The translations under genes and the position numbers were made by a program. Source: Octopus vulgaris (Eukaryota). Taken from it: 64,000 bases of DNA. Within the stretch, counting starts at the first letter, position 1, and each line of letters begins with the position of its first letter. The DNA lies in contig OX597819.1 of the NCBI GenBank assembly GCA_951406725.2, forward strand, positions 114,328,001 through 114,392,000. The letters run 5' to 3'. Under the pieces are notes generated by a model. That model did no database searches. It was not told where the DNA came from and saw nothing but the letters and a program-made list of their open reading frames with translations. This document shows, piece after piece, positions 2,259-29,416 of the stretch.

Positions 2259-4472
2259 AGAGGGACCAGCTATCCGAGTTGATAGTTCCGTGGTAGCTAA
2301 GGCAATTAGAAGCATGAAGACAGGGAAAGCCCCAGGCCCATCAGGAATCACTGCAGAGATGCTCAAAATGTCTGGTAGTGTCGGCTATAGCCTAGTCAAC
2401 CGTATAGTTAATCAGGTGATACACAAAGGAGTCATACCCAATGACTGGTGTAGCAGCATAATAGTCAACTGCTACAAAGGTAAAGGTGATGCCCTAGATA
2501 CAAATAACTACAGAGGTATCAAGCTGTTGGATCAGGTGATGAAGGTTACGGAGAGGGTCATAGCCCAACTAATTAGAGAGAGAGTTAGTTTAGATGAGAT
2601 GCAGTTTGGGTTTGTGCCAGGGAAAAGTACCACTGATGCTATATTCCTGGTAAGGCAGCTGCAGGAGAAATACCTCGCCAAAGATAAGCCCCTGTACCTG
2701 GCTTTTGTTGACATGGAGAAAGCCTTCGACAGGGTCCCCCGATCCCTTATCTGGTGGTCAATGAGGAAACTAGGGATAGATGAATGGTTAGTGAGAGCTG
2801 TGCGGGCCATGTATAGGGACGCTGCTAGTAAGGTGAGGGTTGGCAACGAGTACAGTGAAGAATTCCGGGTAGAGGTAGGGGTCCACCAAGGCTCAGTCCT
2901 CAGCCCCTCCTATTTATCATAGTCCTCCAGGCAATAACGGAGGAATTCAAGACAGGATGCCCTTGGGAGCTCCTCTATGCTGATGACCTTGCTCTAATTG
3001 CTGAGTTGCTATCAGAACTGGAGGAGAAGTTTCAGGTGTGGAAACAAGGATTAGAATCGAAGGGCCTTAGAGTCAATCTAGCTAAAACCAAAGTCGTAAT
3101 CAGTAGGAAGGTAGACAAATCACAAACGCCTTCAGGTAGATGGCCCTGCTCGATCTGTAGAAAAGGTGTAGGTAGAAACTCTATAAGATGCACTAAGTGT
3201 AAGCTATGGATACATAAGAGGTGCAGCAATGTCAAAGGAAGGCTAACTAGGAAGATGGTTTTTGTATGTGGCAGATGCTCAGGAACAATAAACACTGAAA
3301 ATGCTCTGAGACCAACTTCCGTCACTTTCCAGGGAGAAAAACTAGAAATAGTTGATAGTTTCCGTTACCTAGGTGACCAAGTCAGCAGTGGGGGCGGGTG
3401 TGCTGAAAGTGTAACTGCTAGAGTAAGAATAGCTTGGGCAAAATTCAGAGAGCTCTTACCTCTGCTGGTGACAAAAGGCCTCTCGCACAGAGTAAAAGGC
3501 AGACTGTATGATGCGTGTGTATGAACAGCCATGCTACATGGCAGTGAAACATGGGCCATGACTGCTGAGGATATGCATAAGCTCGCAAGAAATGAAGCCA
3601 GTATGCTCCGATGGATGTGTAATGTCAGTACTCATACTCGGCAGAGTGTAAGTACCTTGAGAGAAAACTGGACCTAAGAAGCATCAGTTGTGGTGTGCAA
3701 GAGAGACGTTTGCGCTGGTATGGTCATGTGGCGAGAATGGATGAAGATAGTTGTGTGAAAAAGTGCCACACCCTAGCGGTTGAGGGAACCTGCGGAAGAG
3801 GCAGACCCAGGAAAACCTGGGACGAGGTGGTGAAGCACGACCTCCGAACTTTAGGTCTCACTGAGGAAATGACTAGAGACCAAGACCTCTGGAAGTGTGC
3901 TGTGCGCGAGAAGACCTGGCAGGACAAGTGAGTCCATAACCTGTGGCCTCCTACATGGGATGGAGCCAGCCTACGTATGCATACCTTCCCTTCTTGGGAC
4001 ACAAAACTCTACTTGTTAAGACCTGTTGAGGCAAGTGAGGATCAGAGTCGAAATCGATCAATGGAAATTGCAGATGTGTTACCAGTGCCGGTGGCATGTA
4101 AGAGAACCATCCGTTTGCGACTGTTGCCAGCGCCGCCCCGACTGGCCTCGTGCCGGTGGCACGTAAAAAGCGCCATCCGTTCGTGTCCGTTGCCAGCCTC
4201 ACCTGGCCCCCGTGCCGGTGGCACATAAAAAGCACCATCCGTTCGTGGCCGTTTGCCAGCTCTGTCTGGCACCTGTGCGGGTGGCACGTAAAAAGCACCC
4301 ACTACACTCACGGAGTGGTTGGCGTTAGGAAGGGCATCCAGCCGTAGAAACACTGCCAGATCTGACTGGGCCTGATGAAGCCTTCTGGCTTCACAGACCC
4401 CAGTTGAACCGTCCAACCCATGCTAGCATGGAAAACGGACGCCAAACGATGATGATGATGATGATGATGATG
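2259..4472 (+). mobile_element. RTE-clade LINE, 5'-truncated young copy (RT, PHD-like finger, repeat-containing 3' UTR, (GAT)n tail)
   Basis: RT motifs [65 protein letters not shown]. Two 1-nt deletions relative to the second copy (~2905, ~3668), TGA at 3522-3524, (gat)n tail at ~4448-4472. Confidence 0.95.
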
Positions 4473-10514: not shown

Positions 10515-10625
10515 GTTCCAATCGAGTATAATTTCCAGTTTGATGTTGATGATGAAGCGTTAGTGGTGGAGGCCAGCTTTGTTCCTCTTACACCTTCTAC
10601 CATGAAGAAGATTATTGAGGAAGGT
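10515..10625 (+). CDS. SELENON: SELENON exon (first visible): [37 protein letters not shown]
   Basis: Polypyrimidine tract + ccag acceptor, gtaagt donor. Resembles vertebrate SelN EETLTIEARFQPLLPETMTK. Confidence 0.85.
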
Positions 10626-13600
10626 GTAAGTATCTTTCAGTTTGTAGATGTCTGCATACAGGTATTGCATGAGGGGCTTGAATATCTGAATAATGCTTAC
10701 GTTTTTGAAACAATTATCTCACCTTTTAATTAGTTGTTCTTAGATACACTCTTTCTACATGTAAACCAGTTACACACACATGATACATAATATTCTTTTA
10801 CACATACATACATTCACTCTCTCTTTATCTCACATGCACCACACACAGATACACACATTCTGTTATTGGCGATGAGCTGGCAGAAACGTTACCACGCCGG
10901 GCGAAATGCTTAGTGGTATTTCGTCTGCTGCTACGTTCTGAGTTCGAATTCCGCCGAGGTCGACTTTACCTTTCCTCCTTTCGGGGTCGATTAAATAAGT
11001 ACCAGTTACGCACTGGGGTTGATAATCGACTTAATCCGTTTGTCTGTCCTTGGTTGTCCCCTCTATGTTTAGCCCCTTGTGGGTAATAAAGAAATAGGTA
11101 TTTTGTCTGCTGCTATGTTCTGAGTTCAAATTCCGCTGAGGTCGACTTTACCTTTCCTCCTTTCGGGGTCGATTAAATAAGTACCAGTTACGCACTGGGG
11201 TTGATAATCGACTTAATCCGTTTGTCTGTCCTTGGTTGTCCCCTCTATGTTTAGCCCCTTGTGGGTAATAAAGAAATAGGTATTTTGTCTGCTGCTATGT
11301 TCTGAGTTCAAATTCTGCCGAGGTCGACTTTGCCCTTCATCCTTTTGGAGTCAATTAAATAAGTACCAGTTACGCACTAGGGTCGATATAATCGACTTAA
11401 TCCATTTGTCTGTCCTTGTTTGTCCTCTCTGTGTTTAGCCCCTTGTGGGTAGTAAAGAAATAGGTGTCAGTCATTGGAAGTTGCCTATGCTAATTCTAAT
11501 TCTGAGGTGATCTAACAAAACCAAAACAAATTACCATTCTAAGGCAAAGATTAGATTTGCTCTCCATTGCATTGCTTACATTCTATTTTTAATCAGTTAA
11601 CATTTCAGGATTATCTTCCCCACCTTTCTTGATCATTAAGCTATGATCATTTCTTCTCCCCATACATGGAATAATTATTGATTAAAATATCTTGACTCAT
11701 TGTAACATGAATCTTGTCAAAAGAACCAGTTAAGTATTGTAGTTGATATTGTCATCTATCCCCTCTCACCAAAATGAATAGGGCTGATTACTCATTAAAT
11801 GATACCTTTGATTATGGAAACTTCAATTAAGTGCTTCTTTTTATTCAAATTAACATGTGGGATAAATAAATAATTGTAAGTAGTGATTCGAAAGATAATT
11901 ACAATTTTGCCTATTGATTTTTCAAGTTCTAAGAATCAATTAAATGCTATAAACCACTTATGTTAAAGATATATGGTTTTGTGTCAATATCGGTTTCAAA
12001 TTTAGGCACAAGGCCAGCAGGATTGGAGGTGGAGCTGAGTCAATTAAATCGACCCCAGTGTTCAACTTGTACTTACTTTACCAACCCTGAAAAGACAACT
12101 GGCAAATTTGACCCTGGGGGAATTTGAACTCAGAATATTAGGACAGCTGAAATGCTGCTAAGTGTTTTGCCCAGCATGCTAACAATTCTGCCAGCTTGCT
12201 GCCTTGTTTTGTGTCAATATTTGAAAGTATGATTATTATTTCCCTTTTTTTTTTTTTTTAAATTTAGGAACAGATTATGGAAACTCAGAAGTGTTTTTCT
12301 GGACTCAAAGAATGGAAAAAACCAGCGAAGAATCTCATGATATATTCTGCTAAACACTTCAAACCTTTTCTGCCAACCAACCCAGATTTCATGAACTCTG
12401 TGGGTAAAGTCTACACACTGTGGGAGGGCAGTAGATTCCAGTACATCACTGGACAGATGCCAAGCAGCAACAGATATTTTCCATCTCTATTCAAAGACAA
12501 CCAAGCTATTTTTCACAGTCTCCTTTCTATGTTTCACCCACGCCCATTTCTCCTGTCGCGTTTTGAACCACAAGGAGCTGTGGCTTGCGTTAGAGCATAC
12601 AATTCTGAGTTTGTGGACATAGCTTTTAGGTAAGAGATAACATGTAACATCTCATGTTCTTTGAAATATATTTAAATTGCTATTTTGGCAGAAGACCACA
12701 TTTAACTGATTGACTCAGTCCTATGCTGTAAATGAAGGCATGACTAGGTGGTTGAGAAATTTGTTTGCGCACATATCATCTATGAGAGCCTTGGTGTAAT
12801 CATGCATGTGAGTGAAAGTTTCCCTATGAAAGCTGTGGAAGTCATCAGAGCTGTTGCTGGTCTTGGGTGGTAGATTTAATCCATTGCCGGATTTAACACT
12901 ACACTTCATATGTGGTGTCTTTAACAGGGACCGCCCTATCGCTAGGATCTGGGCCATGTTTCTGGTCTAAGGATAACTTCATCTCTTCCTTCCACCTGTC
13001 TCAGAAAAGGGTTATGGGAGTAGTCCTTATTTCTCTAACTTAAGCCATTAAAGAATAACAAATGAGTTGTAATCATTTAAAATTTCTTGAATGAAGTTGG
13101 TTTAGAAAGAAAAAAATTGAATAAGGTTAGATATCAAGCTTGGTGCCCTGTCACTTATGCTGGATCACCTCACTCATTACCATCACCATCATCATCATCA
13201 TCGTTATCACTCAAATAATTATTATAGGAGTCAGCAGAGAAACTTTTATAACAGCAACAATTTTTCTAAAGAGATTGCATAAGCTAATTACAGAAATTCT
13301 TTGTACTTGCTCAACCTGTTCAAGGGAGCCTCTTCATTGTTGCCTGGCTTTCCAGAAACAGTAGTCAAATCTCTTTTAAATCACACTCTATTGTTTTAAA
13401 CAATAATTTGATGGATAATATAATCAGGAGTACACTCTTGCTTGGAAATAAAAAGCAGGGTTGGTCATGGTTGGAATACCTTCGATTACAGATCTGCTCA
13501 GTCATAGTCAGCTTGGGGCTAAACAGAAACCTGTTCAAGTGCAAGCCAACAAGTGTGCTTCTTTGTGATAAGATTATTCTGTCAAATGCAATGCTTATTT

Positions 13601-16600
13601 ATTCAATTGTTACCCCATAACGTACCCCCAAAATAAGTACTGGGCTTCATTTGTTCAATTAAACCCTTCAAGGTAGTGCCCCAGTATGGCCACTGTCCAG
13701 TGGCTGAAACAAGTAAAAGGTAGAAGATAGAACTCATTAGGAAAACCTGTATTCATTGCATAACCTCCAAATTTATGCTGGAGAAAAGAGGTTGTGATGT
13801 TTATGCCTTTATCATGAAGGATGAGAGTTACAAGAAGTAAATGTTACAAGTAAAAGATTGCTTAGAAATCACAGGTTCAGTCCAACGTTATTTTACTGAT
13901 ATATGTTAATACATAAAGCATGATGGGCCACGATCGTGGCTGTCAGGCACAGGTCAACAGGCCACAATCATGGCTCGGATAGATGCATTTAACTTATGGG
14001 TGTTTGTTGGGGTCTAATGTCACTCGAAGGCTCTGATACCCCCCCCCCCCCTCCGCCCCAGAATGCAAGAGGACTAATTGTTCAACTTTTCAGATGATGT
14101 AGATGATGACTTTTCAGATGATGTAGAACTTGCTACCATTATATACTAAGAAGATATTTTAACCATTTTTTGTTTTTTATGTGTGCATGGTAGTTTCATT
14201 GTCATAAAATGTGCTCAGGAGTCCATGCTATGTAAGTGCAAATCCCAGTGCTTTATGGGTTAAACATAAAATGTGTCTTTCTTATCATCAGGCATAAACC
14301 ACACAGATTTAAGTAATAATTTTTGTAGTCATAGTTGTACATGATCTGTTTGATAATCTGAAATAAGTCATGATTTGTCTCCTAATCTATGTTAATCTAT
14401 TCAGATTAATCAGCCACTCAGATTTTCATTGAGATTTTATTTCTCAATATCTATCACTACTAAAGTGACGAACTGACAGAATCATTAATTAACACTCTGG
14501 GCCAAATTCTTAGTGGCATTTCGTCCATCTGCATGTTCTGAGTTCAAATCCCACCAAGGCATGCCTGTCACTAAGGAGGTGGGGGGAGGGGGGCCACTAG
14601 ACTGCACTGCTCCCTCACTATTGGTGCACCCTCAGATTTAGAAAATACAATTTACAAAAATCTTCCTGCAATACAAATTTGTGCCTACCCAGAATATTCT
14701 GAAGCACCCCCAGGTACCAAAGTCTAGCAACACGCCTGCGCTGATGTCAATTTTACCTTTCATCCTTTTGGTGGGGGTCGATAAAATAAGTGCCAGCTGA
14801 GCACTTGGGTCGATGTAATTGACTTACTCCCTTTCTTGCAATTGCTGGCCTTGTGCCAAAATTTGAAATTAATATCTACACTCACTGAGTGGTTGGCGTT
14901 AGGAAGGGCATTCAGCTGTAGAAACACTGCCAGATCAGACTGGAGCCTGGTGCAGCCTTCTGGCTTCCCAGATCCCCGGTCGAACTGTCCAACCCATGCT
15001 AGCATGAAGAACGGACGTTAAATAATGATGATGATGATGATAGAAGGAGCGAGCTAGCAGAATTGTTACTGCTCTAGACAAAATGCTTAGCAGCATTTCT
15101 TCCAGCTTTGCATTCTGAGTTGAAACTCCACCGAGCGGTTGATACAATAAGTACCAATCAAGCACTGGGGTTGATGAAACTAACTGACCCCTTCCTATGG
15201 AATTGCTGGCCATGTGCCAAAATTTGAAACCAATAGCTATCATTATTATTTTTCTTTGTTTTGTTATTATCAGAATTTTAGAACAGTGCTTTTTAAACTA
15301 TGGGTCACGACCCAATTTGGGGGTCGTGAAGTGAAATGCTGGTGTCACGAAGATTAAATTCAAACACTTGAATTTCAGTTTATATGTTACTAGCAGCTAA
15401 GCCCAGTTTCACCCGGTCTGTTTGGATGGACATGTATGTGTGCATGTGTGCATGCTTGTGCTTGTGTATGTGAGAGAGAAAGAGGGTGAGAAAGAGAGAT
15501 AGAGTGAGTGAAGGTATGTGTCATGATGATTGACGTCTTTTAAGGTACACACACATACATAGAAAATGTGAGGTCATCATGTAAAATTTTTACAATAGTT
15601 GATTGATGGAAAAGATTATATTAAATTTTTGAAATGCAAATATGTGAATGAAAATTAAGTTCAGACCTCTACATGGTAGCTAGACATGGTAGAAATAGCT
15701 GCCAAATCTCCCTCAAAACACCCTACTGTCTTAATCCGACAATTCTGCCTATTATGTAGTTTTAATGAGAAACTGTAACTAAAGATTAAGATTATTAACC
15801 TCACAAAGAGGTGAAAGAAGAGAGACAGCATAGCGAAATTTTTAGCTGACTGTCATCCTGTACTCCCCTTGCTGCTAGCGAAATGGTATATGCTGGCTGT
15901 ATGAGCAACTGGCTGTTTTAATGGTGGAACAAACAGGGGAATTCCATTAGTAAAAGTTTTAATCGATTTTCTCTGTAACTATGGGGGCTAGGAAAAAAAT
16001 ACAAACCGCATTCCAATCTATGCACCCATCTCCACATGTGTGCCATTTTTCATGCAAATCCACCCAGCCGTTTTACTGTGAACCTGAAGACAAGAAAGAA
16101 TATAACGATTGCCCATGTTCAATTTATATCATAGATTTCACAAATGCATATTTAATACCTAGGGTTGTGAAAAATCTTGCGATGAAAAATGGGGTCATGA
16201 ATGAAAAAGTTTAAGAAATGCTGTTTTAGAACATGTGACAAAGTGCCTTAGTATTTAGTTATAGCCCTTTAGAACATCTTATAGTATTTAGTTAGAGCCT
16301 TTCACATACTGAATTCAAATTTAGCCGAGGCTGATTTTGCATTTCATTCTTTCAGGGTTATTGAAATAAGTATCACTCATGTACTTGGGTTGATATTATA
16401 AACTACCTTTTCTCACCAAAACTCTCTCAGTATTTCCTGTCTACTCTAGAACCATCAACAGGAGTGTCTTGGATTTAACATCAAGACACCTGCCCATCAA
16501 GTCTGCTTGGATCAGAGCTTAGATGGACTGTCTGATACTCAGACATTCCCATGACAATTACATGTTTTCAGAGTATTTATAATCACTGTGATTATGCAAA

Positions 16601-19600
16601 TCATAATCAAGATTGTATAAAAAGTGACGGTAAATGCCATGTACACATGGATATTGAAGTAACAGTATATGGGAACAAGATGTCATGTTTCCCATCATTA
16701 CTAGTCATTATGGCAATACCTAGCGCTAATCTTCTCATGAGATTGTTCTGTGCTAGGTATGGGTGTGTATACGAAACAACTGACTAAGACAGAGAAATAT
16801 ATATACAATTAGATTCTTATAAAGAGCTGAAACTTTACATTTGCAACTTAAAGTTAGTTAGTTAGTTAATTTTTTGGCTCAAAAAGCAAAAAGCAAGGCC
16901 ATGTAGGGGGACATGGAGTTATGTACAGCGTAGTGTTCATGTAAAGAGTTCAGGCCACTTGTGGTCAAGGAAGACTTTGAACCGAGCGGTCGTCGGCATC
17001 TTCACCATCTCGTCTGGCAGCTTATTCCACAGATCTGCAACCTGGATGGAGAAAGCCCCTCTCCTTCGATTGAGATGAAATTGTTGCAGATAGAGCTTTT
17101 CGGAATGACCCCGCAGCCGACGCTCTGGAGCAGGAGTGAAGAACAGCTCTTTTGAGAGGTTACACTTTCCGCTTATGATGTTGTGAGCAAGAATGAGATC
17201 ACCACGACGTCGTCGTTTTTCTAGAGAATAAAGGTCGAGCGTCTTCAGCCTTTCTTCATAAGACAAATTTCCACCTTTCACCTTTTAGTTCCCCAGACGA
17301 CATACATGATCATGATGATGATCATCATCGTTTACGTCTGTTTTCCATGTTAGCATGGGTTGGACGGTTTGACCGGGGTCTGGGAAGCCAGGAGGCTGCA
17401 CCAGGTGCCAGTCTAATCAAGCAGTGTTTCTACAGCTGGATGCTCTTCCTAACACCAACCACTCCGTGGCAGCTGCAGGAGAAATACCTAGCCAAAGATA
17501 AGCCCCTGTACCTGGCTTTTGTTGACATGGAGAAAGCCTTCAACAGGGTCCCTCGATTCCTTATCTGGTGGTCAATGAGGAAACTAGGGATAGATGAATG
17601 GTTAGTGAGAGCTGTGCGAGCCATGTATAGGGACGCTGCTAGTAAGGTAAGGGTTGGCAACGAGTACAGTGAAGAATTCCGGGTAGAGGTAGGGGTCCAT
17701 CAAGGCTCAGTCCTCAGCCCCCTCCTATTTATCATAGTCCTCCAGGCAATAACGGAGGAATTCAAGACAGGATGCCCTTGGGAGTTCCTCTATGCTGATG
17801 ACCTTGCTCTAATTGCTGAGTCGCTATCAGAACTGGAGGAGAAGTTTCAGGTGTGGAAACAAGGATTAGAATCGAAGGGCCTTAGAGTCAATCTAGCTAA
17901 AACCAAAGTCGTAATCAGTAGGAAGGTAGACAAATCACAAACGCCTTCAGGTAGATGGCCCTGCTCGATCTGTAGAAAAGGTGTAGGTAGAAACTCTATA
18001 AGATGCACCAAGTGTAAGCTATGGATACATAAGAGGTGCAGCAATGTCAAAGGAAGGCTAACTAGGAAGATGATTTTTGTATGTGGCAGATGCTCAGGAA
18101 CAATAAACACTGAAAATGCTCTGAGACCAACTTCCGTCACTTTCCAGGGAGAAAAACTAGAAATAGTTGATAGTTTCCGTTACCTAGGTGACCAAGTCAG
18201 CAGTGGGGGCGGGTGTGCTGAAAGTGTAACTGCTAGAGTAAGAATAGCTTGGGCAAAATTCAGAGAGCTCTTACCTCTGCTGGTGACAAAAGGCCTCTCG
18301 CACAGAGTAAAAGGCAGACTGTATGATGCGTGTGTATGAACAGCCATGCTACATGGCAGTGAAACATGGGCCATGACTGCTGAGGATATGCATAAGCTCG
18401 CAAGAAATGAAGCCAGTATGCTCCGATGGATGTGTAATGTCAGTACTCATACTCGGCAGAGTGTAAGTACCTTGAGAGAAAAGCTGGACCTAAGAAGCAT
18501 CAGTTGTGGTGTGCAAGAGAGACGTTTGCGCTGGTATGGTCATGTGGCGAGAATGGATGAAGATAGTTGTGTGAAAAAGTGCCACACCCTAGCGGTTGAG
18601 GGAACCTGCGGAAGAGGCAGACCCAGGAAAACCTGGGACGAGGTGGTGAAGCACGACCTCCGAACTTTAGGTCTCACTGAGGAAATGACTAGAGACCAAG
18701 ACCTCTGGAAGTGTGCTGTGCGCGAGAAGACCTGGCAGGACAAGTGAGTCCATAACCTGTGGCCTCCTACATGGGATGGAGCCAGCCTACGTATGCATAC
18801 CTTCCCTTCTTGGGACACAAAACTCTACTTGTGAAGACCTGTTGAGGCAAGTGAGGATCAGAGTCGAAATCGATCAATGGAAATTGCAGATGTGTTACCA
18901 GTGCCGGTGGCATGTAAGAGAACCATCCGTTTGCGACTGTTGCCAGCGCCGCCCCGACTGGCCTCGTGCCGGTGGCACGTAAAAAGCACCATCCGTTCGT
19001 GTCCGTTGCCAGCCTCACCTGGCCCCCGTGCCGGTGGCACATAAAAAGCACCATCCGTTCATGGCCGTTTGCCTGCTCTGTCTGGCACGTAAAAAGCACC
19101 CACTACACTCACAGAGTGGTTGGCGTTAGGAAGGGCATCCAGCCGTAGAAACACTGCCAGATCTGACTGGGCCTGATGAAGCCTTCTGGCTTCACAGACC
19201 CCAGTTGAACCGTCCAACCCATGCTAGCATGGAAAACGGACGCTAAACGATGATGATGATGATGATGATGAATGTATAATATTGTATATATCAAAAACCT
19301 CAGTATTCAGTTTCATGTTTACATATTTAAAATATTCTTTCTTCTCATTTCCATCTTTAATTCATACAGAATACATGCAGAATTCCAGCTGAATGAACGA
19401 CCAAACCTTCCATTTTGGTTCACTCCAGCATATTTCTTTGGCAATCTCATCATCAACAAAAATGCTACATCTCTCCTGAAGTTCAATCTTGCTGTACCAA
19501 CTCACAATAAACTCAATGTTGGTTAGTAGAAGTAATTGAAAATATATTGTATTGCTGTGTTGTGGTTTATGTGCCTGGTGTGCATATGTCTGTCTGTATG

Positions 19601-22600
19601 TGTATCTGTGTGTTTATGATGCTATTTGAAGACTGGTGTGTGAATAAACTACATTTATACAACCCTAATAATGTATAACCTGTTGATGGGGTGTTGCTCA
19701 TTTGAATTAGTGGTACCCAGACTGAAGGGGAAATTGGTTTCTTGGCTGAAAGTTCAAATAGTTTCTTTTCCTGTCACCAGTACTGCACTGTGCCCATAGC
19801 CAAAACACCTATGCTATCTCCCCACACCTAACTGTCATTAGCAACTGTAAGCTGAGACAGTCTATCAGTATATGCAAGGATAAGATGCTCCTAGTACTGG
19901 GTTCTTCAAATTCTTCTATGAATATAGCTTGAAGAAAGATAGAATGTTTCAAGACTGTATGAATAAGGAGTTTGCTTTTTGACCTTGTGGTTTTGGATTC
20001 AGTCCCACAGCATGGAAAGTGTCTTATACTATGGTGCTGGGTCAATAAAACCCTGTGAGTGGGTTTGGTAAATGGAAACTGAAAGAAACCTGTTGCATAT
20101 GTGTGTGTGTATGTGTGTGTGTGTGTTCTTGTCTTGACATCATAGAATACTTATGAGTTACTATCATTCAAGCAGAGTCCTTCATTTCCAATCTTCCAAG
20201 AACACATGTGAGGCCTTGGTGAAGTATTATCTTGCCTGGACACAAGCCAAAGTTGGTGACAGGAAGGGCATCTAGCCATAGGAAAAATCTGACTCCTGCA
20301 AGCATGGAAAATGTGGATGTTAAAACAATGGAGATGACAACGATGGTATATTCAAGCCAGCATCTTATAATGCAATAGGATTTAGAAAGTACTCATGCAT
20401 ACACACACATAAAAATGCTCATGCATGCCTATACATACTTGCACGCACACAAACACACCATGTATACATAGACAAATGTACACATACTCTCCTTCACAAA
20501 CTTATATACCCATACATGCAAAACATCCCACAATACAAACGTTTCATGTTTTACAACTCTGAATGTCTTTCAGACATGGAATGGCTGACAAATGTGGCTG
20601 ATGAAGTCAATATGGAAGTCAACATTGGATTTCTACCCAAAATGGAACTGAAGTCCCTCAGCAGATCTACTGTTCACGCTAACCAGCTTGATTTTGAAGG
20701 TATTGATGAGGCGGTCACCAACCAAGAAATATCATCTATTTCATGGACGGAAGAAATCTCCATGGAAGAAGCAATGAAAAGTATGGAAGTCAAAATGTTT
20801 CCCTTTAAGGAAGTAGGTTACTTTAGTAGAATATTTTATTTCTTTTGTTGGACTTTTTGCATTGTGTTTGTTGGAACTGTTGCTAAGCAACAGACCATGT
20901 GTATGTTTATATACATTGTGTGTGCATATTTATGTCATGTAGTGTGAGTGTTTTAAGATATACCCTACATAATGCAGTTGTGCAGATTATAAGGAAGGGG
21001 CCTTTTACATGCTTGCTTGACCAATGAACCAATAAGAACCTCTGTACAGTCACTCGACATAATAGAAATAGCTGTCAAATATTCTTTAAATTATACTCTA
21101 TCATCTTAAAATATAAGATATCAAAGTCTATCTAAATGTGGAATTCTGTCTGTCTGGGACACCTGTATCTCAGACTACATTTGCTCCGTATAGAAATATC
21201 ATACCTTTTTGGAATCAGGATGATCCCTGGATTGAAAATCTGCCCTTCATTTGGTTCTTGAACATCCAGTATTGGGATTTCATTTTAAAACATTTGGATT
21301 GCTATTTCTAGCAGGTAAAGCTTGGTTGATTCATGCTTTCTTGGTTGGCATTTGTCAGATGATGCCAGAGATGAAGGAGTGTGATAAATGACATTAATTT
21401 TGTTAATTTTATGCCGAGATGAAAACTTTTGGACAAATTGGCCAACTTGGGACTGGAACAATAGAATGATTGCAATCCAGAATGAATTTTCATCTGTCCT
21501 TAACTTCTGATCACACCACTGGGGCATATAATCATTATAGATGTATTATAGTCATGTTCTTTAGCTCTCTTTAGTTTTGGGCCTCAGACCCAATTAGCCC
21601 TCTGCAGGAGTTAGACTAAAAGTCTGCATGGAGTGCAGCTTTTAAGCTTGTATTAGATAAATGAAACAAGATAGAATGGTTACAGTTGGAATACATTTGA
21701 TTTTTGTCAACCAAAATTTGGCTAAAAAAACAATATAAACTTGGGCTAAAAACGACATAGATTATAATACAATGTGTGTATTATAAAAAGTGATGTATGA
21801 TTGTGCACAATATAAAGGATGTTTCTGTGTTAATACACATATTCTGAGTTGTGTGTGCATATGTTTGTACATGTAGGTGAGCATATAAAAAATTCTTTAT
21901 TATTATTATTATTATTATTTAGCCCCTATTTTAATCCTGCTTATGCAAACCTATGACAAAAAGTGTTCCAGCAATGGCCATCCAATCTATTTAAAAGTAT
22001 GTTGTCTCATGTTCTTTTTTTATTTAAAATAGTATGATGTGATCTGAAGGAAATTAGACTGCTATTTGTAGCAAGTTGAGCAACCATGTAGAGGCTTCTC
22101 CCTGTCATGTGGAAACTGTGCATGATGAAGCTAATCTACATGGTTCAATACTTGAAGAGTGTATGTAGTGTGTAGAGTCAAGTGTGTATGATTTTGTGTG
22201 TGTAGTGTGTGTGTGTGTATATAGTGTTTTTTGTATGTATATTGTGTGTATTGTACCTGTATGTTGAATTTCTACTAAACGCGGAATTATATTTTCAGGT
22301 CCCTTATTACAACTTTACTTCAGCCTTTAAAAAGGCCCAGGCTGTACAGAAATTAGTTCACTCCATCATATTATGGGGTGTACTAGATGATCAGAGTTGC
22401 TGAGGTTCCGGGCGAACCCTGCGAGAGACTGCTCTCCAGAGTTCGCCCGTTATGTCTTTCCTTAAGGAACACTTTATCAGTACTTCCTGCCTTGTTGTTG
22501 ATCTTGAGGTAAGTTGTTGCCAATTTCTGTTCCTTCTCTGCTTGTCGAAAGCTTGTTTTAGGTTAATTTTGGGCAGAAGTTGCAGCTAGTAGTAAAAAAA

Positions 22601-25600
22601 AAATCACCATACTTCTATGTTTACCTTTGTAGCAGGAATAATGATGATGATATATATGAAGGGCATCCTGCTGTAGAAACTCTGCCAGATCAGATTGGAG
22701 TCTGGTGCAGCCATCTGGTTCACCAGACCTCAGTCAAATCGTCCAACCCATGCTAGCATGGAAAGCGGATGTTAAACAATGATGATATATATATATGCAT
22801 GATTGAATCCAACCCATGCTAGCATGGAAAGCGGATAAATGATGATGATGATGATATATATATACACACATGATATTTATCACATGAACTATGATGAAAA
22901 AATGTTAGATATGGTATATAGATTTTCTTGTGCAGGGGTTTCTTGAGATATAATTTATTGTATGGGTTGTGCAAGGGTAAAAGGGTTGAGAAACACTGGT
23001 ATAGAGTGTACTGGGTGCTTTTTATCATGACACCAGCACTAGAGAAGTTGCCTTGTCCTCTGAAAGACTTGAGAGTTCATCCCTTCAGCATTTAAACTGA
23101 CTATATCAGGCTCATATATTCTTCCTGTTTTATGTTCAAACTGTCTGGATCCAGCCTCTCACACCTATCCTACAATGTCATTCTAAAAATAATCATAGAA
23201 ATCTCAAAGCTATAAGATAAGACAATTCAAAACAATGTGAATAAATAAGCATTACATTTGACAGAGTAATTTGAATGTTAAAGGGTTAAGGCAATGTGAC
23301 TAAAAGGGGAAATGGAAGAGAGAGTATGAAAGGAGAAACAAAGTGATAAGGATGAGAGGTTGATAGGAAAAGGAGACAGTAATAGGCAGTTACTTGTTAG
23401 TAAAGAGACTGAGTAGAAATACAAGTTTGGACAGTGGATTAAACGCATTATTCAGACCATAGAGCTTTGCTCTACTCCAGTGTTTCTCAAGGAAATGTGG
23501 ATGGGTAGATGCTGTGAGGATTGAAAAGTTGGGCAGACAAATTGCCATGTTTAATAAATTTTAGATGGATTTCAACTTTTTAAATTAGCCACTACCATTG
23601 TGAAGAAAAGAGAATTATATGGATACAAGTTTAATTTTTGTCTTCTCGTTAACAAAAATGGAAGAGGGACAGAAATTTCACTAATAATTTGGATGGGGCC
23701 TGGTTTTTGTTAGATTGAGACCACTGCTCTACACAGGTTATCCACCTTATGACGATGATGATTAATCAAAATTATTTTGTTCTTATTTGTTGACTTCAGG
23801 ATCTGAAGAAAGGCAAAGGTGAGGCTGCTAAAGTTGCAACTATGTTCCTTGAGAATTATAAATTCCCTGTCATGATGATGGTATCTCTCTCCAATGGCAC
23901 TATCTTGAATAAAGTAAATGCCAACGATCTCCTTGATGCTCCATCTGACTTCTGGAATACAGGGTATGGCATTTTAAAACTTTTTTATCAACTGTTTGTA
24001 CAATAAATCACTTACATTTCTGTTATTTTCTTACTGATTTCATTCATTAGACAGGGCATTGTCTTCATGGATTTTGTAAGTATTCGTTCGTTCGTTTAAG
24101 TATATCAACTTCAGTAGTTAAATTTTGTCTGTTATTTATCAATCTCTAACTTCAGAGGTATAAAAGGACACATCATAAATACAGACACTGTCCCCTACCA
24201 CATAAATACTGTATAGTTCTACTTACCAAATTCCATACACAAGGTATTGGCTGACCCAAGGCTTTCATGAGGTGCTATACAGTGAGATTGCACCCAAGGT
24301 CATATGGTTATGAAACAGACTTCCTACCTACACAACTATGGGTGTCTATTTTTTTTTTTTTGAATAGGTCTCAGGACAGACTCTCCTCTTCACCCAATCC
24401 CTGTTTCTTCAAGTTCCACTTAGAGAAAAAAGAAAGGTTGAAGAAAGTGATACTGCCCTACAATAAAGTTGTAGAACTAGGAGTGGAATTGATGACTATG
24501 GCCTGAATAAATGAGCCTACTTACAGTATACATCTATAAATTGAAGAACATAGCAGGGAAAGAGTAGTTTTGGAAATCAATTGTATGCATAACACCTTGG
24601 GCAACTATATTCAACTGTAGTCTTGTGTTTGTCAGTATTACCATCCATCCGTTTTTACTGTCCACTATCCCTAGGAGGGTTGAGCCATCAGGCACTTCCT
24701 CCACAGAGTCCTATCAGAAGCAACCATTATTAAAATTTCTTACTGGATTCCCACACACAACCGAGACTATGGATATTATCCAGCTAATGGTACTTCTTAA
24801 ATACGGAGGTCCTGACGCACGCATCTATGTAATGATATAAAGGAAAGGTAACCCTAACCCCTCTGTATTTAAGTAGTGCCCAACTATCTTGGTCGTGGTC
24901 TACACCATGTGGTGCCCAACTATCTTGGTCGTGGTCTACACCATGTGGTGCCCAACTATCTTGGTCATGGTCTACACCATGTGGTGCCCAACTATCTTGG
25001 TCATGGTCTACACCATGTGGTGCCCAACTATCTTGGTTGTGGTCTACACCATGTGGTGCCCAACTATCTTGGTCATGGTCTACACCATGTGGTGCCCAAC
25101 TATCTTGGTCATGGTCTACACCATGTGGTGCCCAACTATCTTGGTCATGGTCTACACCATGTGGTGCCCAACTATCTTGGTCATGGTCTCCTGGTTTCAA
25201 GAATTTATTTTGTGATTCTTTTCTGCAGCATTCTAACCATGTGTCTGTAGTGCCAAAGGTGTGACCTCTCAATGTGGAGCAGTAGCAACTCAATCTAGTG
25301 AAACACCCTTATCTCCAGGCTACACTCTCTGTTGGGTAACGCTTATGAGTAGAATTTGGTAGGTAGGAATAGGAACTCAGAATTTATATATATATATGCC
25401 GGTGGTACGTAAAAAACACCAACTGATCGTGGCCGTTGCCAACCTCCCCTGGCACCTGTGCCGGTGGCATGTAAAAAGCACCCACTGCACTCATGGAGTG
25501 GTTGGCGTTAGGAAGGGCATCCAGCTGTAGAAACACTGCCAGATCAGACTGGAGCCTGGTGCAGCCTCTTGGCTTCCCAGACCCCGGTCGAACCGCCCAA

Positions 25601-26143
25601 CCCATGCCAGCATGGAAAATGGATGTTAAACGATGATGATATGCAGATATATCTTTCACTGATGAATGTCAGCAAAAGATAAAATGTCAGAGAGAAAGCG
25701 AACCAAAAAAAAAATCCTTACAAATGAAGCCCTTAAGTTATTTATTCTGTATTGAGTGGCAGACACCCTTTTGTCATTCTTACAATCAGAAACAGTAAAC
25801 TCTTGTATTCAGTGATGCCATTCTTCAATTATAAGATAAATATGCAATGGGGGTCTTATTGACTAACAATAAAAATGCCTTTGTGATGCAGTTTTAGTGA
25901 AGATAGGGATTTTAGGCTGCAGTTAGATATTCCAAGAAAAGTTTTTTTTATACTACTATCTGATGTGACCTTGGATATCAGAACTGCTATTTGTTGCTTA
26001 AAATGTTTAGCTCAAAACTTCTTTGATGTACTCAACCAAGTTCTTGACAAGAGAAGGACAAAATCTTTCAAATAATAATGTGTGCGAGCACATGTAGTAA
26101 ATTCTATGAGGAAATTGTAATTCAGTCATTATACATCCATCTT

Positions 26144-26184
<41 letters not shown>

Positions 26185-26808
26185 CAGGAGTGGCTGTGTG
26201 ATAAGTAGCTTGCTAACCAACCACATGGTTCCGGGTTCAGTCCGACTGCGTGGCATCTTGGGCAAGTGTCTTCTGCTATAGCCCCGGGCCGACCAATGCC
26301 TTGTGAGTGGATTTGGTAGACGGAAACTGAAAGAAGCCCATCGTATATATGTATGTGTATGTGTGTCTGTGTTTGTCCCCCTAGCATTGCCTGACAACCG
26401 ATGCTGGTGTGTTTACGTCCCCGTCACTTAGCGGTTCGGCGAAAGAGGCCGATTGAATAAGTACTGGGCTTACAAAGAATAAGTCCCGGGGTCGATTTGC
26501 TCAACTAAAGGCGGTGCTCCAGCATGGCCACAGTCAAATGACTGAAACATGTAAAGAGTATACATATATATATATATATATATGCGTGTGTATGTATTTA
26601 AATTCATTAACTGTTTGTGATTCCTTTACAATATATAGTAAAATGTTTAACTATTAGGAAATTATATGGAAAAATAATTATTAAGTAATTTATCTTTCTT
26701 TCTTTCTTTATCTCCAGGTTTCAAAACCCAACCACCGTGTCTTACTTAAATTTCTTGAAGACAGGTTTTCAAAATAGTTTAAAGTACAAAACGAGACCAA
26801 ACATATAA
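10515..26808 (+). CDS. SELENON: Selenoprotein N orthologue, spliced and 5'-partial: join(10515..10625,12268..12629,19370..19521,20574..20812,22299..22508,23800..23963,26718..26808); TGA 22401-22403 = Sec
   Basis: All introns are GT-AG with consistent phases (0,2,1,0,0,2). Summed length is 1329 nt = 443 codons. The translation matches SelN motifs in order: [118 protein letters not shown]. The N-terminal TM/EF-hand exons were not found in the window. Confidence 0.95.
10868..11465 (+). mobile_element. tRNA-derived SINE (Meta/MESC-like core) with its body tandemly triplicated
   Basis: Head ggcgatgagctggcagaa.., B box gagttcgaattcc, core gtcgactttacctttc.tcctttcggggtcga..aagtaccag. A 182-bp unit restarts at ~10916, ~11098 and ~11280. 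Confidence 0.85.
12268..12629 (+). CDS. SELENON: SELENON exon: [16 protein letters not shown]...[38 protein letters not shown](R)
   Basis: Poly-T/ttag acceptor, gtaaga donor. Contains the conserved MFHPRPF and PQGAVAC motifs; overlaps ORF 12277..12633. Confidence 0.95.
15390..16135 (-). mobile_element. Non-autonomous Helitron nested in a hAT-like MITE (~15284-16224)
   Basis: Minus strand begins TC (tctatgatataaatt) and ends with hairpin + CTAG at an AT site. The flanks cagtgctttttaaact.. / ..agtttaagaaatgctg form hAT-like TIRs. Confidence 0.6.
16852..17281 (-). mobile_element. CR1-clade LINE 3' end
   Basis: [47 protein letters not shown], with a (taac)n tail at ~16852-16868. Confidence 0.88.
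17468..19270 (+). mobile_element. RTE-clade LINE, second near-identical 5'-truncated copy, in a SELENON intron
   Basis: Nearly base-for-base match to 2654-4472. ORFs 17347..18339 and 18346..18747 are in one frame, separated by a single TGA. (gat)n tail. Confidence 0.95.
19370..19521 (+). CDS. SELENON: SELENON exon: [50 protein letters not shown]
   Basis: cag acceptor, gttagt donor, phase 2 to 1. Contains the conserved IHAEFQL and PFWF motifs. Confidence 0.95.
20574..20812 (+). CDS. SELENON: SELENON exon: [26 protein letters not shown]...[16 protein letters not shown]
   Basis: tttcag acceptor, gtaggt donor. Contains the conserved DMEWL, NMEV.IG and M.PFK motifs. Confidence 0.93.
22299..22508 (+). 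CDS. SELENON: SELENON selenocysteine exon: [70 protein letters not shown]
   Basis: ttttcag acceptor, gtaagt donor, 210 nt. SelN similarity continues in frame past the TGA at 22401-22403 (SCUG motif). Confidence 0.97.
22409..22449 (+). promoter_or_regulatory. Selenocysteine redefinition element (SRE) stem-loop in the SELENON CDS
   Basis: cgggcgaac (22409-17) pairs perfectly with gttcgcccg (22441-49). Inside that are ctg/cag, gagag/ctctc and an actg loop: 17 bp, starting 5 nt after the Sec TGA. Position and shape match the vertebrate SELENON SRE. Confidence 0.85.
23800..23963 (+). CDS. SELENON: SELENON exon: [54 protein letters not shown](G)
   Basis: ttcag acceptor, gtatgg donor. Resembles vertebrate [26 protein letters not shown]. 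Confidence 0.92.
24876..25189. repeat. 36-bp minisatellite, ~8.7 near-identical copies, in the last SELENON intron
   Basis: Unit gtgcccaactatcttggtcatggtctacaccatgtg, head-to-tail with no spacers. Variation is confined to tca/tcg/ttg. Confidence 0.97.
26184..26560 (+). mobile_element. CORE-type tRNA-derived SINE (second family; well-preserved minus copy at ~45172-45580)
   Basis: tRNA-like head (gtggctgtgtg.taag..ggttcagtcc), CORE-like cttgggcaagtgtctt, internal (TG/TA) tract, and tail ccagcatggcc.cagtcaaatgactgaaac..gtaaagag. Confidence 0.8.
26718..26808 (+). CDS. SELENON: SELENON last coding exon: [29 protein letters not shown]
   Basis: Long pyrimidine tract + ccag acceptor, phase 2, TAA at 26806-26808. 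Resembles FEDPSTATYMQFLKEGL. Confidence 0.92.
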
Positions 26809-27000
26809 CCTGTAAAATCGGGAATTGCAGATTAACAAATTTATGTCCTGTTTTTTTATTATTATTTTAATTATATGAAATATATATTTTTATATAGAAT
26901 TCGGCTAAGAACTAAAGCAAGTTCTGTGATATGACTTGTTAAGATTTCTTCCAAAACCTGCATATACACACACACACACACACACATGTATTTAGTTATG

Positions 27001-27074
27001 CACACTCAGTTGATACCTGAATGATGGCACCAATGTAAAACCTTGTGGTGAGTTTGTGCCTGATGCTGAAATGT
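27001..27074 (+). promoter_or_regulatory. SECIS element, type II, in the SELENON 3' UTR
   Basis: A-TGAT (27021-25); helix II ggcaccaatgt/gagtttgtgcc; AAA at 27037 (11 nt after the quartet); apical mini-stem acc-ttgt-ggt; 3' TGAT (27061-64); lower helix tcagt/gctga. About 210 nt after the stop codon. Confidence 0.88.
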
Positions 27075-27831
27075 GGGTACATACTGGATGTGCACAACTG
27101 AACTGAGAAACAAAAACAAACTCTTAGCCATATATTTAGGTACACCTTCAATAGAAGATGGAGGTTAATTTTTCTACTGTTGCGAAATTTTATATTCAAC
27201 AAGTTAAAATAAATTTAATAAAGATCTGTTTATATGTATATATTCTGCAGCATTGGTTGCAATATCTGTCTCACACATACTTACCTGTTATACTCTTCCA
27301 GTCTTATTTTCTCTACATAAACAACTAGTCACACTTAGACATACAAATATAAATATACATATAGTTATTCTTTCCCCTCAGACACACACTATATTATTCA
27401 TTCCAATCCTCTCTCAAAAAATAATTTGATTTTGTAAAATGCCAGGCTACTGGTAAGAAGTTCATATCCTATCATCAGTTCTGCAGTGTCTCTTTTGATA
27501 AGGGAGAAAAAGAAACCTGAATTTTCTCTCACCTAGTCTGCTTCCTTGCTATGTTGATATTTTGGCCCAGATTAGCAATGATAAAAAGCATTCAAACTTT
27601 GACTGTTTCATCTTTTATTCACATAGTGTATCTAAGAATTAATTAGCTAATGTGTCCCATGTTTGCTTTAAAAATATTAGGGTATTATTTTAGGGAAGTT
27701 TGGTTGCTATTTCTAGCTGTATATTATTTCTTGAATCACTATTATGATATGATCAAGGGTACCTTTGTAACCCTGTTGACAGGTACATTACTTACACATA
27801 CATAAAAGCTGGTAACTTGACATTTAAAATA

Positions 27832-28041
27832 CAGTAATCCCATGACTATCACAGGTGTCACGTTCCGAAAGCCCCCATGATAGTTGAAAATCTGCCAAGT
27901 AGAAACAGTATTGTACTGTATATATTTTTAAAATTATTTTTATAATTTGTATATATTTATTTTATTATAAATGCAAAACAACACCACGGAACAATCAACA
28001 TAAGCTTAAATAATAAACCACTACATGGCGAGGGATTACTG
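27832..28041. mobile_element. Tc1/mariner (pogo/Tigger-like) MITE
   Basis: TA|cagtaatccc...gggattactg|TA terminal inverted repeats. Confidence 0.75.
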
Positions 28042-29416
28042 TACTCTTATTCTGGTACAATAGAAATAGCAAGAAGCTTTTATCTTTCAAGGCTTTTAAC
28101 TGCATTTAAAGGCAGGTCTTGGATGTGAGTGAAATCTAGCAGCTGTTGCCAGAAATGTGGCACAGATGAATTCAAAGACCCAGTCTTCATGATGTGGTTA
28201 ATAATATACAAACATACATTATCTTACATACCTATATACATAGTGAAGTTCACATACATAATTTAGTCATTATTTAAAAGGTTTTGCTTCTCTCTCTCTA
28301 GCCTGGGACGCTGTAAGGTTCTTCATGAGAGATTTGGAACTCAGTATTTCAATCTGACAAAACTCTCATTGTTCTTCATACTCAAATAGAAAGCAATGCC
28401 CAAAATATTAGATTCTGCAATTGTCTCACTCATTAAACTTTCCTGTTGATTAATTGTTACTAATACAGACCACCTCAATCAATATACAGTGTTGTTGTCA
28501 TTTGCAGCAAGGAGTGCCACATCATGACACCTATTCACATATCTAGGATTGAAAGGGATAAATGTCTTAGCTGTAGACATCATGCAGTACTCATGATAGG
28601 ATATAAACATCATATTATAGGATAGTCGGGCACATTTGTAAACTTCTCATTTGGACATACAAGCTGTAAATTTTCATATGGAATTCATTTAAAATATCTA
28701 CTGATAAATTTTCACCAGTAAATTGTATATATTTATATATACATACCTGTACACAATGGGCTTCCACACAGTTTCTATTAAGCAAATTTGTCTCTGAAAT
28801 TATCAGTGAACCCCAAATTATGGGAGAAAACACTTGCCTGAAGTGCACATCACTTTTGGGGTTAAGTTTGATAACACATGGTTGTGAAGTGAACTGTTTG
28901 ACCCCACAGCTAGGCCTGCATCCATATATAATTGTCTCTCTTACACCTGCATTCATACACACATACATACACACTCACTGACCTTCATTTCTAGTTAAAT
29001 GAGGCTTACCTAGTTAAGTTCTAATTCATGAATGGATTAGGAAAATTTAAATAGAACATGGGATAGATTACTCCATCATTTACATTTCAAGAAGTTCAAA
29101 ATTATGTTTGGTACTAATATTTGAGTTTATACATATTGGAACCACTTTGAATTTGTTGTTTGAATGCAGTGGATTGGGAAACTTCCTTTCTTTACCTTGA
29201 AGTTACACTGGATTAAAAAATCAAAACTTCACATCCCACTGCATTTGATTGTAAAACATAAGACCTGTAAAATTCTCAGCTAATCCCTCTCATTTGCCAA
29301 AAGTGTCTTGAACGTAATTCAAACGAAATGTTTATACAAAGAGTGTCAAGTTTTCTTTTCTTTTTTTTTAACTGTAAAGATTCTGATAAAGAAACATTTA
29401 TGTAATCCCATTAAAA

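Follow-up and report, generated by a model that had tools for sequence, protein, structure and literature searches.

The octopus SELENON gene very probably carries an SRE (selenocysteine redefinition element) of its own. Within the window (the whole 64-kb stretch of Octopus vulgaris DNA that was analysed), a predicted hairpin lies just downstream of an in-frame TGA. We put at about 85% the probability that this hairpin and the human SRE are orthologs and that a larger fraction of ribosomes would, with it, read the UGA as selenocysteine, a reading drawn from sequence comparison. The SRE has been described in vertebrates, and there are patients in whom SELENON mutations disrupt it. Its basal helix is kept in octopus and in many invertebrate-type genes, which suggests that the base and its spacing matter, not the loop or the tip, and the conserved base and spacing may help to rank human variants in these codons. 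The comparison would also present an RNA structure steering amino-acid change beside an active site, and with bacterial homologs of this gene at hand, ideas on where SREs came from can be tested.

The SELENON gene and its hairpin in the window

The part of the gene found within the window (Table 1) comprises seven exons with a total of 442 codons. The first 178 codons were not found there, tblastn of residues 1-177 returning no match in the window. Over the 322 residues preceding the TGA, the translation matches without a difference the tail of P0003, a public Octopus model with the source name Octopus vulgaris selenoprotein N-like. P0003 ends at the Cys just before the Sec codon, and the last 120 residues are therefore missing from the public model; false splicing skips the Sec codon in many vertebrate SELENON models. 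Past the TGA, the reading frame stays open for 119 further codons, up to the TAA. The last five exons are joined, with zero letter differences, in contigs from two sequencing runs that belong to different studies (sequencing runs X2 and X12 being classed as RNA by guess). Since these spliced contigs match exactly, the spliced form does contain the TGA, which cannot be put down to faulty assembly. A sequence-only reading of the window had assigned the gene to SELENON, an assignment on which the identity with the P0003 tail, the trees and the spliced contigs agree. Two reverse-transcriptase-like fragment copies of 1.8 kb, 98% identical and with broken frames (2654-4470 and 17467-19270), which we take to be LINE-type, are located in or close to SELENON introns, and the last intron holds a tandem array of about nine copies of a 34-nt unit (24877-25190).

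Table 1. Coordinates of the SELENON features in the window
Feature	Position	Strand	Comment
SELENON (selenoprotein N) gene, 3' part	10515..26808	+	seven exons; tail match to P0003
SELENON exons, first four in the window	10515-10625, 12268-12629, 19370-19521, 20574-20812	+	
SELENON exons, last three	22299-22508, 23800-23963, 26718-26808	+	TGA in 22299-22508; TAA 26806-08
Gln(CAG)-Ser-Cys(TGC) codons 5' of the TGA	22392..22400	+	CAG and TGC fixed across animals
In-frame TGA, inferred Sec codon	22401..22403	+	motif DDQSC-U-GSG; exon 22299-22508
6-nt spacer, Gly-Ser codons	22404..22409	+	last C may pair with 22449; also 5' arm of the unsupported switch
Conserved basal helix, 5' arm	22410..22420	+	C22418 mismatched in octopus; 191/198 cells paired in 18 rows
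Apical part	22421..22437	+	G22421-C22437 pair, bulged C22422, stem 22423-27/22432-36, loop 22428-31; register varies between animals
Basal helix, 3' arm (22438-22448), plus extra G22449	22438..22449	+	
SECIS-like element, 3' UTR	27013..27072	+	AUGA 27021-24, AAAA 27037-40, UGAU 27061-64
Two AATAAA hexamers	27208..27222	+	candidate poly(A) signals

The SECIS-like element of the 3' UTR possesses the core motifs and the helix and scores 21.4 bits against Rfam SECIS_1 (E 0.73), which falls short of the gathering score (35). It is the sole match of a motif-and-helix scan of positions 26809-28600, and no one contig covers both the hairpin and the SECIS. Among the 20 related loci scanned, many of them short, 8 have SECIS-like elements, and an Rfam SECIS search of six mRNA-type loci found none. 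A GUGA-type SECIS, of the kind reported in sponges (PMC3473315), was looked for in the deep-branching loci and not found.

The predicted hairpin comprises 17 bp (22409-22449) and starts after 5 nt (ggttc) 3' of the TGA. Its lower stem of 9 bp (cgggcgaac, 22409-17, with gttcgcccg, 22441-49) is followed by a C.A mismatch (22418/22440), a ctg/cag helix (22419-21/22437-39), a bulged C (22422), a gagag/ctctc stem (22423-27/22432-36) and the loop actg. Pairs, mismatch, bulge and loop are exactly those described in the sequence-only reading; what had to be corrected is the start of the conserved helix, which begins 6 nt and not 5 nt past the UGA, the extra basal pair being possible in just 7 of the 18 animal-type rows compared below.

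As a predicted fold, the hairpin is real. Its energy of -29.4 kcal/mol (z -5.7) is equalled by 0 of 200 dinucleotide shuffles. With the peptide held fixed, synonymous re-codings that fold as well number 1, 3 and 21 per 20,000 under gene, uniform and GC-rich codon weights, respectively. Along the 442 codons, the hairpin is the best-scoring place among 142 scanned segments (z -6.4 and -5.1; next best -2.8), and the two segments that contain it rank first and second. The earlier remark on GC- and CpG-rich codons in an AT-rich gene is borne out by a GC content of 0.65 versus 0.40 and by 5 CpG in 48 nt versus 14 in 1275 nt; the contrast in GC3 is small (0.56 in the hairpin versus 0.42). When the first 8-9 nt after the UGA are held unpaired, the predicted helix still has -20 to -17 kcal/mol. 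Rfam at gathering score reports 0 matches in the 64-kb window, and there is no Rfam family for the hairpin.

Selection on the basal helix in animal-type genes

Selection on synonymous sites, together with compensatory changes, is shown by alignment for the predicted 11-pair basal helix across 18 distinct animal-type rows. These come from a scan of metagenome contigs with a pattern that fixes residues and leaves third positions free. From its 26 matches, L021 and L025 were dropped as not being SELENON and 7 duplicates were merged before counting; the 24 animal-type SELENON loci give 17 distinct 55-nt rows, the window being the eighteenth. Close kin are found among them (L013/L017/L008, L015/L022 and L003/L007). 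As the scan finds only genes retaining the motif residues, the count of 24 out of 24 does not exclude loss elsewhere. Run on viral contigs, the same residue pattern returned no match.

All 18 rows fold better than their own codon-aware null (z -2.9 to -5.6). The basal helix, formed by columns 10-20 with columns 38-48 and starting 6 nt past the UGA, is paired in 191 of 198 cells (96.5%, versus 29-55% for slid-partner controls), its first conserved pair (column 10) being present in 17 of the 18 rows. Double changes occur in 5 of its cells, a figure reached by 0 of 500 shuffles, and are limited to 2 of the 11 pairs, a pair count reached by 72 of 500 shuffles in a control that ignores kinship between rows. 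L003 and L007 are sister rows, and the independent events therefore number about four. The double changes alter residues and keep the pair: Ser+13 becomes Cys in L003 and L007, and Ser+14 becomes Leu, Pro or Ala in L003, L020 and L026.

Where residues are retained, the helix codons are nearly invariant: Ser+14 is TCG (15/15), Ser+13 AGT (16/16), Gly+3 GGG (17/18), Pro+15 CCC (15/18) and Arg+4 CGN (18/18). The respective background frequencies in six coding sequences are 13/233, 52/233, 29/154, 21/180 and 50/138. Codons of invariant residues outside the helix (Gly-8, Leu-6 and Leu+20) vary freely. The sequence-only reading had proposed selection on structure at synonymous sites and had named pairing at such sites in relatives as the check. 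Both points are upheld: a single re-coding in 20,000 is as good as the octopus sequence, every animal row beats its codon-aware null, and the helix is kept in 18 of 18 animal-type rows with rare codons fixed.

Upstream of the TGA, CAG (position -3) and TGC (position -1) are fixed in the 17 distinct rows with upstream sequence, namely 14 of 14 intron-free rows and 3 of 3 distinct intron-type rows with an upstream exon. In the six background coding sequences, CAG accounts for 40/105 and TGC for 10/25, and the choices at the two Asp codons beside them are split about evenly. These fixed codons are likely to form a second, sequence-level part of the same signal, and they may act through the P-site or exit-side context. 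A small CAG/CUG hairpin over the UGA, considered as the cause of their fixation, was rejected, being predicted in just 2 of 14 rows. TGC is likewise present, as a raw count, in 19 of 19 Poribacteria sites.

Comparison with the vertebrate SRE and proposed role in decoding

The human SEPN1 SRE is described as a 16-bp stem with a 1x1 internal loop, a 5-nt loop and a 6-nt spacer (PMC3159437). The fish row L010, which clusters with a teleost (support 98 in a quick tree), folds with the same 16 bp, 1x1 loop, 5-nt loop and 6-nt spacer. L010 thus has the published human geometry, and the octopus hairpin may on this ground be regarded as an SRE ortholog: L010 and the window are equal at 36 of 46 positions and share the basal helix pair for pair, in line with the earlier claim of the same place and base as in vertebrates. 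The octopus hairpin belongs to a SELENON ortholog and shares with the human and vertebrate SELENON SRE the codons, the 6-nt spacer to the conserved base and a stem of 16-17 bp with a 1-nt symmetric (1x1) internal loop and conserved pairing; its mRNA has a SECIS-like element where the vertebrate one has its 3' UTR SECIS. It differs from the fish SRE by a mismatch one column lower, one added basal pair, the bulged C, an apical stem one register over, a 4-nt instead of a 5-nt loop, and a G-C for C-G swap tied to a Glu-to-Gln change. Loop and apical register vary among the 18 rows, and the octopus hairpin is therefore a variant and not a member of another family.

The upper stem had been said to differ from the vertebrate one and still pair, and it does so; however, it is not a covarying copy, as its pairing is shifted by one register, and the only true double change is C-G in fish versus G-C in octopus. 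This pair, 21-37, is broken in 6 of the 18 rows, and L020 exhibits the same Glu-to-Gln change as octopus, uncompensated. The octopus register is preferred by 10 rows, the fish register by 2 and a third register by 4, while 2 rows are undecided; the loop letters are not conserved among rows. RNAalifold reports a 3-bp apical helix, which was not counted as covariation because the other two registers already account for most of its pairs and, of the 5 rows that have a pyrimidine at column 24, just 3 are paired there.

An intron is located one base after the UGA, between the UGA and the hairpin, in L010, L012/L024 and L013, with a matching acceptor in L017. It is common to the fish row and a long-branched animal group; octopus and the other genomic rows lack it. 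The mRNA distance from the UGA to the hairpin is equal with or without this intron.

In the human SRE, mutants of the stem, loop and spacer are reported to lessen Sec insertion, and the loop is said to matter in reporters (review PMC8704476). Disease variants are located in it (PMC3541580, PMC8584023), and SREs are described as enhancing Sec decoding without being essential (PMC5727441). EvoFold, applied to an alignment reaching from human to fish, likewise detected the vertebrate SELENON hairpin (PMC1440920). The SRE/HRE stem-loops of SPS genes, for which invertebrate examples exist, and the SREs of SELENOP (bioRxiv 10.1101/014928; PMC5727441) are similarly coding-region stem-loops near a Sec UGA, thought to favour recoding; SPS and SELENOP are other gene families. 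The 3' structures of viral and Drosophila readthrough (PMC3159437) resemble the SRE in placing a stable stem a few nucleotides 3' of a leaky stop, but, unlike it, they insert ordinary amino acids and need no SECIS.

With the UGA in the A site, the G+C-rich base of the helix, 6 nt downstream, would stand at the mouth of the mRNA entry channel. By resisting unwinding, the helix might slow or disfavour release-factor action, and the delay would give the 3' UTR-tethered SECIS-SBP2-eEFSec machinery time for Sec-tRNA delivery. The working part would be the basal helix and its distance from the UGA, the apical stem just closing the helix while its register and loop letters stay free.

It is improbable that the structure is selected mainly for a non-decoding role, such as guarding against nonsense-mediated decay, binding a regulator or defining an exon. 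The octopus UGA does lie 105 nt upstream of an exon junction, and SRE variants lower transcript levels in patients (PMC8584023); lower mRNA would result from poorer decoding anyway. In contrast, the distance to the UGA is the same in 18 of 18 rows, those with an intron after the UGA included, and the human element is reported to work in intron-free reporters (PMC3159437), both of which argue for a role in decoding.

We give little credence to the idea that the hairpin promotes readthrough without need of a SECIS, an ordinary amino acid being inserted at the UGA, which is the proposal made for insect SPS1-UGA. Some human SRE readthrough is reported to occur without a SECIS (bioRxiv 10.1101/014928; PMC3159437), but the octopus 3' UTR contains a canonical-looking SECIS, and the SECIS-like elements of related loci point in the same direction.

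The sequence-only reading had also suggested that a competing 5-bp ggttc/gaacc hairpin (22404-08/22414-18) could act as a switch; such a two-state switch, tuning readthrough in competition with the SRE, must be abandoned as very unlikely. The complement exists, perfectly so in the window and L004, and it arises from the likeness of the Gly-Ser codons to the 3' arm. The five pairs can all form in 7 of the 18 rows and are broken in 11. The 80% of cells paired, versus 31-59% in slid controls, reflects the fixed Gly-Ser codons; shuffles reach 80.5% against the observed 80.0%, and no double change is seen. In the window, the switch has a pair probability below 0.0001 and would cost 14.3 kcal/mol; its predicted share is at most 0.002 in 14 of 14 rows, and its five bases would presumably sit inside the ribosome during UGA decoding.

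Finally, the view that a conserved active-site peptide, together with local G+C, gives rise to the hairpin as a side effect is largely refuted, for although the residues beside Sec are strongly conserved and alone supply about 6 of the 11 basal pairs (null means), the codon-aware nulls, the rare codons fixed in A+T-leaning genes and the residue-changing compensations all speak against it.

Age of the element and the Poribacteria hairpins

The trees used here are quick searches. They place octopus, the annelid Owenia, L002, L015, L020, L022 and L026 in one clade (98). Protostome-type and vertebrate rows both have the helix, and a bilaterian age is therefore well supported, as the claim that the element dates back at least to the bilaterian ancestor had anticipated. 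With bacterial homologs as the root, the earliest branches are L004 and L003/L007; L014, L018 and L019 group with Porites and Nematostella, outside the bilaterian group (89). The other trees give a similar picture. An arrangement with all loci joined to the named bilaterians, apart from the cnidarians, is not rejected by the AU test (p 0.393). As this test is not decisive and the trees lend moderate support, a pre-bilaterian age of the SRE is probable and not more.

SelN has been recorded from a sponge, an anemone, a limpet, an annelid and amphioxus, and the passages of PMC3473315 reporting it there leave the SRE unmentioned. A full-text search of the literature, including PMC12839072, PMC3316567 and supplements of PMC4561486, found no invertebrate SELENON SRE and no Poribacteria SelN; the primary SRE papers lie outside this search and may show non-vertebrate examples. 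It is plausible that the octopus copy extends the age of the SRE beyond vertebrates, the element and its mechanism being already known in kind. Deuterostome invertebrates may be among the sequences reportedly aligned in Howard 2005, Howard 2007 and Maiti 2009.

In 13 Poribacteria loci (L027-L039), the motif caught 19 SELENON-like Sec sites, with none caught in L028 and L032. A Poribacteria locus often contains several SELENON-like genes, each of which has a small hairpin placed 17 nt past the UGA. This 6-bp hairpin (columns 21-26/31-36) is 99% paired, with 2 double changes, among 18 distinct rows, and covers the apical half of the animal hairpin in the third register, the one preferred by 4 of the 18 animal rows. 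The basal helix is 17% paired in the Poribacteria sites, and model R1 finds 0 of them. Compared by position and register only, this bacterial SECIS-type hairpin shares with the animal SRE a homologous protein and the codons of the apical half. Unlike the animal SRE, it is devoid of the basal helix, starts 17 nt past the UGA and is presumed to bind SelB, whereas octopus SELENON is a eukaryotic gene with a separate SECIS-like element. Shared residues alone could give the overlap, so that a kinship of the animal and Poribacteria hairpins is no more than a possibility.

A derivation of SREs from bacterial SECIS elements has been published as an idea for SPS genes (bioRxiv 10.1101/014928), and the likeness of the two is also noted in PMC12936836. 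We regard as speculative, and rather unlikely as a whole, a scenario in which the SRE dates back to the origin of animals and has a tip that is a descendant or donor of the Poribacteria SECIS hairpin. Animals would then have added the long basal helix, the tip would have drifted over three registers once the 3' UTR SECIS took over, and CAG/UGC would represent another conserved component of the signal. If true, the published proposal of SREs as demoted bacterial SECIS elements could be tested within one and the same gene.

Replacements of Sec occur among vertebrate-type proteins. In P0016, from a vertebrate-type contig, the residue is Trp, which may be a variant, an error or an annotation code. 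Eight marsupial SELENON-like sequences (P0086, P0088, P0089, P0090, P0095, P0097, P0100 and P0102), a natural control for a tie between hairpin and UGA, have Phe at the Sec position and have lost much of the SRE-encoding residue motif, most of which other marsupial entries such as P0081 keep.
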